DNA of 24,202 nucleotides from Eledone cirrhosa. Lineage: Eukaryota. The DNA is taken from the NCBI GenBank assembly GCA_964016885.1, contig CAXHJY010000897.1, positions 1-24,202 of the forward strand, given 5' to 3'. Made by a program: the position numbers and the translations under genes. Every line of letters starts with the position of its first letter. Positions within the stretch are counted from its first letter, which is position 1. This document shows positions 7,703-8,524 of this stretch, in pieces. The notes beneath the pieces are model-generated. The model made no database searches, had not been told where the DNA came from, and worked only from the letters and a program-made list of their open reading frames with translations.

Positions 7703-8524
7703 AGTTGTAATAAAATGAAAACGAAATTTCATTTCTCACTCTTAGTACGGCACTTACTTAAATGTAAGTATGTATGTATACGCACATACATATATGTATA
7801 CAGACGTACAGTAGCATGCATATATATATATATATATACATATATATATATATATACATATATATACATACATATATGTACGTATCAGTTTAGCGGATGC
7901 TTATTATAGCGCACGCTTTGTTCGTTTGTAAACAAACTGAACAGCCTGAATTTATGCCGCACGGTGTTAAGGCAACCACGTCACCTTTTTGTTCAACACT
8001 GACACAGGAACGATGTACTAGTTTCAAGCTTGTTAGCTATCATCAGCACCGTATACCCATCTGCCATATAGTTGAACGTTCGAAAGTATATACTTTCCTT
8101 ATGAAAATTAACGGCTGAGCAGCCTAATTTGCATATCGAGTGAGTTAAATCGGTCAGGCGCACCGAAAACGATGAGTTGTAATAAAATGAAAACGAAATT
8201 TCATTTCTCACTCTTAGTACGGCACTTACTTAAGTGTAAGTATGTATGTATACGCACATACATATATGTATACAGACGTACAGTAGCATGCAGTAGTGTT
8301 GAACAAAAAGGTGACGTGGTTGCCTTAACACCGTGCGGCATAAATTCAGGCTGTTCAGTTTGTTTACAAACGAACAAAGCGTGCGCTATAATAAGCATCC
8401 GCTAAACTGATACGTACATATATGTATGTATATATATGTATATATATATATGTATATATATATATATATGCATGCTACTGTACGTCTGTATACATATATG
8501 TATGTGCGTATACATACATACTTA
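7703..8524 (-). mobile_element. Non-coding hammerhead-bearing element: 472-bp unit with a 118-bp terminal direct repeat and a ~230-bp inverted arm (retrozyme/non-autonomous PLE-like)
   Basis: 7703-7820 matches 8175-8292 (one mismatch seen). 8295-8524 is the reverse complement of 7765-8000. HHR at 8010-8052. (TA)n on both flanks. Confidence 0.8.
8010..8052 (-). ncRNA. Minimal type I hammerhead ribozyme
   Basis: Minus strand reads ACGGTG-CTGATGA-t-AGCT-aaca-AGCT-t-GAAA-CTAG-TA/CATCGT: 6-bp stem I, 4-bp stem II and palindromic ACTAGT stem III, as in minimal PLE hammerheads. Confidence 0.82.

Follow-up and report, generated by a model that had tools for sequence, protein, structure and literature searches.

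A two-armed insertion of a young non-LTR retrozyme family in the genome of Eledone cirrhosa

Metazoan non-LTR retrozymes have been described as non-coding tandem units that carry a type I hammerhead, have a GC content below 50%, number in the thousands of copies and co-occur with Penelope-like elements (PLEs); their expression and their RNA circles have been shown (PMC7229834), and they seem to lack promoters (PMC7761336). Vertebrate retrozymes are likewise described as non-autonomous PLE partners, and in Xenopus 24 of 57 families matched known elements, at their termini, with PLEs making up 21 of 22 matches (10.64898/2026.07.22.740005). Mobilisation of retrozymes by PLEs via circular RNA is proposed, not shown, in PMC7229834 and in this preprint. 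As for the PLEs themselves, the Anolis element Poseidon has two internal reverse transcriptase (RT) start sites and a "tail", the Anolis PLE protein, a predicted dimer, nicks both strands for extension in turn, cutting and extending each (PMC11167929), and PLE tails are often found at one end only (PMC8557442).

The element described here lies within the window, by which we mean the whole stretch of DNA analysed (24,202 nt), a complete 24-kb contig of a 3.0-Gb genome. On its testable features, the family to which it belongs is a metazoan non-LTR retrozyme, with self-cleavage and circular RNA predicted, and we hold this identity with high confidence. Its units are non-coding and tandem, with a GC content of 35%; at about 460-520 bp they are longer than the 150-450 bp given in PMC7229834 but fall within the 51-972 bp of the vertebrate families. 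In PMC7229834 we found no description of two-armed insertions or fixed ends, the word "inverted" occurring 0 times in its main text, and in the open-licence literature we found no paper describing such retrozymes in cephalopods or octopuses, or retrozymes that combine rolling-circle and inverted copies. Whereas the vertebrate families were tied to PLEs by homology to pLTRs, the link here comes from the insertion footprint and from chimeras. The family is real, young and of a known class, and its insertion statistics sharpen an open mechanistic question.

The window copy and its family

The sequence-only reading of this DNA had proposed an A-B-C-A arrangement followed by an inverted B and a partial A, with a period of 472 bp, and self-comparison of the window confirmed this to the base (Table 1). 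The two copies of repeat A (118 bp, period 472) differ at one base only (7762 A / 8234 G). The segment 8295-8524 reproduces 8000..7765 in reverse complement, except that its internal microsatellite is 6 bp shorter. The element thus laid out is tandem plus inverted, not LTR-like: two arms lie back to back, arm 1 running leftwards and arm 2 rightwards. Unit positions are given throughout in RNA sense on a 472-nt unit, position 1 being the first nucleotide past the predicted hammerhead cut. The (TA)n reported on both flanks is indeed present, and so is the reported lack of a credible ORF: twelve ATG-initiated ORFs of at least 30 aa overlap the element (33-114 aa), mostly derived from microsatellite, and the element has no credible protein-coding capacity.

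Table 1. Features of the two-armed element, in positions of the window
Feature	Position	Strand	Details
Left (TA)n target tract	7664..7702		
Arm 1	7703..8292	-	590 nt = 1.25 units, unit 196-472 then 1-313
Arm 1 3' end	7703	-	at fixed site 2 (313)
Repeat A, first copy	7703..7820	-	unit 313..196
Long predicted hairpin	7775..7887	-	about unit 129-241, around the internal (TA)n tract
Predicted extended stem I, hammerhead inside	7992..8078	-	
Type I hammerhead core	8010..8052	-	predicted cut 8016/8015
TATA-like hexamer	8087..8092	-	about 42 nt past box TATGCAAATTAG
Box TATGCAAATTAG	8124..8135	-	candidate promoter element, matches U6 / RNase MRP box
Repeat A, second copy	8175..8292	-	one mismatch, 8234
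Head-to-head arm junction	8290..8297		extra bases 8293-8294 (2) inside short microhomology
Arm 2	8295..8524	+	unit 16-251, RNA sense
Arm 2 3' end	8524	+	at fixed site 1 (251-257)
Right (TA)n target tract	8525..8654		

Several other features of the window were recorded. The right flank of the element (8651-8950) is a dispersed repeat that also occurs in six sampled loci (L069, L073, L077, L079, L090 and L105). On the plus strand, immediately left of the (TA)n target, a hammerhead-like motif (7576-7630) may mark where an older element ended, its tract having served a second time. Further away lie a 369-bp direct repeat (16313-16680 and 18047-18414; 98.6% identity, 1734 bp apart) and a 28-bp minisatellite of about 35 copies (13576-14579).

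The minus-strand hammerhead and its cleavage position, both called previously, stand as a predicted type I motif. The core has a 6-bp stem I, CUGAUGA, a 4-bp stem II over a U-U mismatch, GAAA, and a stem III of 1 bp closed by the palindromic loop CUAG and followed by GUA. In its 1-bp stem III and palindromic tetraloop it resembles HHR_Amex1 of the axolotl, and in the U-U at the base of stem II HHR_Amex2 of the same species (PMC7229834). The Rfam model HH9 scored it at 18.6 bits (E 0.038), short of its gathering threshold (52). Scanning both strands yielded one hammerhead per unit, in a single polarity, and the motif is predicted in each tandem unit of the family. A viroid-like RNA replicon, for which ribozymes in both polarities were looked for, was rejected: the hammerhead is one-sided, and for other ribozyme classes an Rfam search of the whole window returned microsatellite-driven miRNA matches only, among the matches listed (150 of 196). 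Folding of the unit gave a z of -8.0 relative to shuffles, which is weak evidence because the internal (TA)n hairpin accounts for most of z. The hammerhead stems were paired in 91.9% of alignment cells, with two-sided changes in 6 of 15 pairs; in the sister family the core and loops are kept while base pairs of stems I and II are swapped in a compensatory manner, and the covariation of these stems comes mostly from one divergence event, that of this sister family.

A 36-nt hammerhead core has 10,391 exact matches in the genome, and its reversed control has 0. A single-copy unit, which the sequence-only reading had named as a refutation, is therefore not what we see: the family consists of short tandem repeats that are dispersed and multi-copy, and the genome also holds older subfamilies and one sister family. 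We sampled (i) 10-kb stretches around 50 clusters that comprise the first 100 matches listed on contig 1, (ii) 10 stretches from the best DNA matches plus 20 further ones picked partly for recurring variants, and (iii) later, 30 three-kb loci drawn with another pattern; all of these samples are biased towards copies with an intact hammerhead. Patterns made from the two 3' end sites (discussed later) were of less use, that for site 1 (5,126 matches, control 1,487) being too near plain microsatellite for copy counting and that for site 2 (158 matches) missing the commonest form. Among the sampled loci, the insertion nearest to the window copy is an array of about 11.5 units with 99.8% identity (L111), and the young age suggested earlier for the window copy is supported.

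The sampled loci also contained related and unrelated repeats. The sister retrozyme family, which carries the same promoter-like box, was found at L120:4654-5200 and L143:8531-9574, the former copy sitting in the internal (TA)n of a copy of the window's family. Another tandem family, whose 310-nt unit has a hammerhead of its own, occupies L064:6950-9500. A short palindromic two-armed repeat ending in (TA)n adjoins the retrozyme in three loci, joined to its 5' end in L068 and L088 and lying in the internal tract in L061. Two arrays of more than 20 units (L134 and L135) show block duplications and extend past the 10 kb fetched; the L134 array resembles an old satellite that expanded through duplication of DNA.

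Arm ends, junctions and the template

In the sampled loci, RNA-sense 3' ends cluster at about unit 251-257 or 311-316, with (TA)n coming next. Eighty loci provided 51 closed two-armed chains. Both ends could be classified in 25 of these, and without exception the two ends lay at different sites; in the other 26 at least one end was broken by later insertions, by fusions or by the chain rule. About 15 loci with incomplete chains, read by hand, contained no same-site pair, and one locus that at first sight was such a pair (L072) ends inside its microsatellite. The separately chosen later set (28 loci, after removal of two duplicates from the 30) gave 19 closed chains, with one end per site in 15 of the 15 that were classifiable. 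In the two sets combined, every fully classifiable two-armed insertion (40/40) thus had one arm at each site, a rule that the window copy follows. The neighbouring Hydra family has the same layout, with two ends of its own about 49 and 139 nt past its hammerhead.

The inverted part had previously been attributed to a 5' inversion. With a fixed 3' end of its own, it fits a second priming event better than an inversion of the first cDNA, and the window element is one two-armed insertion of the family, not a single cDNA with a 5' inversion. The inverted 5'-truncated partner, the one-ended tail and the microsatellite target that mark a PLE-type footprint were all found, and we regard Penelope-type double priming of the insertion as very probable; the proposal of more than one pass around the template is supported to the extent of an RNA-templated, Penelope-type insertion that runs through the unit more than once. 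If separate complexes chose their sites independently, same-site pairs would arise about half the time; we infer that a single complex on a single RNA makes both arms.

Described PLE insertions (PMC11167929, PMC8557442, PMC3846280) match the pattern in their two internal RT starts downstream of a hammerhead, one-ended tail, inverted 5'-truncated partner and AT-rich or (TA)n targets. Relative to known PLEs, the retrozyme lacks an ORF, its two sites are about 60 nt apart rather than 30-40, and its arms cross the unit several times. In addition, the start site used by the Anolis enzyme in vitro is alike on both strands (PMC11167929), whereas here the two ends never share a site.

The 5' ends, by contrast with the 3' ends, are scattered around the unit (106 rows, of which 17, at position 200, are artefacts of polymorphism at the start of the query). 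The circularly permuted start points expected by the sequence-only reading thus fail at the 3' side, which is fixed at two sites; only 5' ends scatter. Two non-matching bases directly before unit position 1 occur at 15 places genome-wide, which is no excess of 5' ends at the cut: a neighbouring-position control gave 170 matches, single substitutions included, with true two-letter breaks in 6 of 100 among the matches listed, and extrapolates to about 10 true breaks, close to the 15. The start of the inverted arm about 15 nt from the cleavage site, to which importance had been given, is accordingly attributed to chance. No excess was seen at the predicted transcription start either (31 matches for two positions, about 13 of them apparent small indel variants), and a cluster of five 5' ends at unit 430-431 was not upheld genome-wide. 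At 32 of 42 arm junctions, the joined ends share an overlap of 1-16 nt.

As neither the cut nor the predicted start has an excess of 5' ends, the template should have no end inside the unit, leaving either a circle or a long uncut multimer. Across 75 insertions, divergence was 0.74% within an arm, 0.87% between arms and 4.2% between insertions. In columns covered by both arms, 177 of 310 variants were in one arm only and 133 in both. Eight of the ten arrays of at least three units in the position-ordered sample had no variant common to a subset of their units, and four of these ten had identical column majorities; homogeneous arrays could inherit fixed variants from source arrays outside the sample. 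Eleven variants were private to one insertion yet fixed in all of its covering units, seven of them across both arms. The pattern of interruptions in the internal tract was equal between orientations in 17 of 29 loci (chance rate 0.085), and in L078, L113 and L109 heavily TG-interrupted tracts varied little or not at all from unit to unit. Conversely, only 18 of 42 multi-tract loci had a single pattern throughout, L110/L139 carry the same two-unit variant block in both arms, twice in one arm, and unit variants are also repeated in L082, L111, L112 and L133-L136. A monomer circle cannot yield block repeats; for some events, therefore, either the template was a multimer or the DNA was later duplicated or converted. 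Between a circular and a tandem linear template the evidence leans towards the circular one, and an RNA circle is the probable main template.

The internal tracts also provided a lead, not a result, concerning RNA editing. In RNA sense, interruptions of the internal (TA)n comprised 204 TG and 26 CA (54 loci), compared with 12 TG and 16 CA in the flanking tracts (45 tracts). Such a TG excess is what A-to-I editing of the (UA)n hairpin would leave once the RNA was reverse-transcribed. However, the ancestral interruption accounts for about 54 of the 204 TG, and TG motifs can also be multiplied by slippage. Outside the microsatellite, A>G did not significantly exceed T>C, the alleles numbering 8 and 4 in the 3' arm of the hairpin (p 0.12) and 23 and 27 elsewhere.

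A candidate enzyme and a promoter-like box

The neighbour of the element in the window (2949-6698) is a Hydra-clade Penelope-like copy, 5'-truncated and with an inverted pLTR arm (6055-6698). It had been called autonomous, but roughly the first 177 of the 747 aa are missing in this copy, and stop codons precede its 496-aa frame. It has no homology to the retrozyme unit. Its hammerheads, near 3026 (minus) and 6508 (plus), differ from that of the retrozyme unit, and its left end lies about 10 nt past the hammerhead, compared with about 49 for the usual site of its family. All 86 scored relatives of this copy are 97-100% identical, and many have open frames of about 745 aa. Pfam gave no meaningful match to the Hydra proteins; by eye, the family displays the Hydra-clade motifs DKT, a CxCx5C linker, and CxxC and CxH around E and N, together with RWR for RWK, a C-terminal GIY-YIG-type endonuclease, a hammerhead and a (TA)n target. 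A fragment of another Hydra-like ORF lies at 87-719 of the window, on the plus strand.

At 43 inspected junction positions, the retrozyme was joined directly, on the same strand, to the middle of the Hydra ORF in three loci (L074, L077 and L116), and no such mid-ORF fusion to another PLE was seen. The outer ends of two of these fusions (L077 and L116) are one retrozyme site and one Hydra end, and in L107 an inverted Hydra pLTR serves as the partner arm of a retrozyme. Coding sequence in 500 kb of the sample amounted to 21 kb for Hydra, 23 kb for LINEs and 24 kb for other PLEs. As a LINE end (L084) and other repeats also abut retrozyme arms, Hydra is not the sole partner. The Hydra clade is the best candidate for the driver of the retrozyme, and on balance we favour it in that role. 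Terminal pieces of a second, non-Hydra PLE family are inserted in the internal (TA)n of L116, L138 and L146, indicating that more than one PLE family targets TA in this genome.

The unit carries the box TATGCAAATTAG on its sense strand, 89 nt before the hammerhead core. In this genome, U6 genes of three upstream types and the RNase MRP gene have the 12-nt box at -77 to -79 and a TATA at -30; a fourth U6 array type is without it. More generally, U6 and RNase MRP genes have an octamer-like box near -78, and U1 and U2 genes a different element near -57 (L173-L175, L185, L153-L172). The distance from box to TATA is about 42 nt in the unit and 47-49 nt in the U6 and MRP genes, that is, 5-7 nt shorter. 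Box and layout are both retained by the sister family; in a third hammerhead family, at L077, a similar layout includes the octamer portion of the box. Alignment of the unit with the upstream regions of two U6 genes as whole promoters was non-significant (70 of 500 and 336 of 500 shuffles), so that the promoter claim rests on the 12-nt box and the layout. A U1/U2-type promoter element in the unit was rejected, its best score (6.4) being matched by 207 of 1000 shuffles.

A T run of at least seven near unit 301 is present in 12 of 46 loci, several of them multi-unit; such a run should stop Pol III, and this, with the short spacing, argues against simple Pol III transcription of whole units. An internal U6/MRP-like promoter, with transcription predicted to start near unit 426-430, may be present, at odds that we put a little below even. 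Newt satellite 2 similarly combines a hammerhead repeat with an internal snRNA-type promoter (PMC2220036), but the box found here matches the U6 and MRP genes of its own genome, not a U1/U2 element. We found no paper in the open-licence literature describing such hammerheads with type 3 promoters.

Models of insertion and their consequences

We propose, as somewhat the likelier account, that the window element is a two-armed retrozyme insertion made by a Penelope-like RT/endonuclease that primed from both DNA ends on one RNA, which was probably circular. The unit would be transcribed, perhaps from its own U6/MRP-like box, and the hammerhead would cleave the read-through RNA, probably in dimeric form in view of the palindromic loop of stem III, after which the monomers would be ligated. 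Cleavage of the two strands of a (TA)n tract would fall to a Penelope-like protein, probably dimeric and most likely from the Hydra clade. Of its two active sites, one would start near unit 254 and its partner near 313, each copying towards the 5' side straight across the cut site and stopping at random, and the two cDNA ends would be joined head to head via a few bases of microhomology.

Double priming could instead act on an uncut linear read-through RNA of a tandem array, with unequal crossing-over lengthening the arrays and no circle needed. The ordered unit variants in both arms of L110/L139 and the block repeats in L111, L112, L134 and L135 fit such a template, and a weak stem III would cut slowly. 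For the Anolis element, unprocessed RNA is reported as the main substrate, hammerhead mutants still being inserted (PMC11167929), and the vertebrate preprint proposes local DNA amplification and reports cleavage in 1 of 9 dimers (10.64898/2026.07.22.740005). Yet many different haplotypes each form homogeneous arrays, the uniformity of the TG tracts in L078, L113 and L109 needs repeated passage through one unit, and the predicted start site has no excess of 5' ends; moreover, arm length could presumably only shrink unless there were a rolling step or DNA expansion. Taken together, we consider the linear read-through template rather unlikely. Alternatively, the template might be the cut linear monomer, the RT leaving its 5' end in a precise jump to a monomer 3' end, that of the same molecule or of a different one. 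The fusions of Hydra and retrozyme suggest that the RT does switch templates, which would also explain mixed arrays, but failed or sloppy jumps would be expected to leave 5' ends at the cut, where they are not enriched, and the cut-site junction is intact in 10,391 copies; we regard monomer jumping as improbable.

The sequence-only reading had also named, as grounds for its refutation, copies that were all simply pLTR fragments of one coding PLE with fixed ends. The ends did prove to be fixed, at the two 3' sites, whereas the pLTR of the neighbour is excluded as the source: compared with the pLTR of that family from 12 loci, the unit showed no homology, with microsatellite matches only. Solo or tandem pLTRs of some coding PLE absent from the sample have a precedent in Xenopus (10.64898/2026.07.22.740005), and only a small fraction of copies was sampled. 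Against this origin, the contacts with ORFs in the flanks of the 60 ten-kb loci screened are mid-ORF fusions, not pLTR positions, and the arrays close unit to unit without an ORF, leaving it a slim chance. That the duplication and inversion arose in assembly would be suggested by the microsatellite-rich nature of this complete 24-kb contig and by the absence of the junction of the window copy from the short DNA reads checked; it is nevertheless highly improbable, because the same layout and the same two end sites recur in 40 other insertions, each with its own junction, and raw DNA reads contain strand-switch joints of this family.

A bolder extension of the two-armed model is that the family is a self-transcribing RNA parasite, with its own promoter, circularised, edited in its hairpin and copied in rolling-circle fashion by one Hydra-clade RT dimer, each of its two active sites taking a different start site and a different DNA end. 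We offer this only tentatively, and think it unlikely as a whole; if true, the finding of one arm at each site would provide in vivo evidence for both arms being made by a single PLE dimer on a single RNA. The promoter-like box in the unit bears on the view that metazoan retrozymes seem to be promoterless (PMC7761336). More broadly, the family supplies countable genomic footprints of the PLE route, namely two start sites, one per arm, and seamless passage across the cut site. The Hydra fusions name a candidate enzyme that has many open-frame copies in the same genome, and the family defines an in vitro test in which RNA, protein and target are known.
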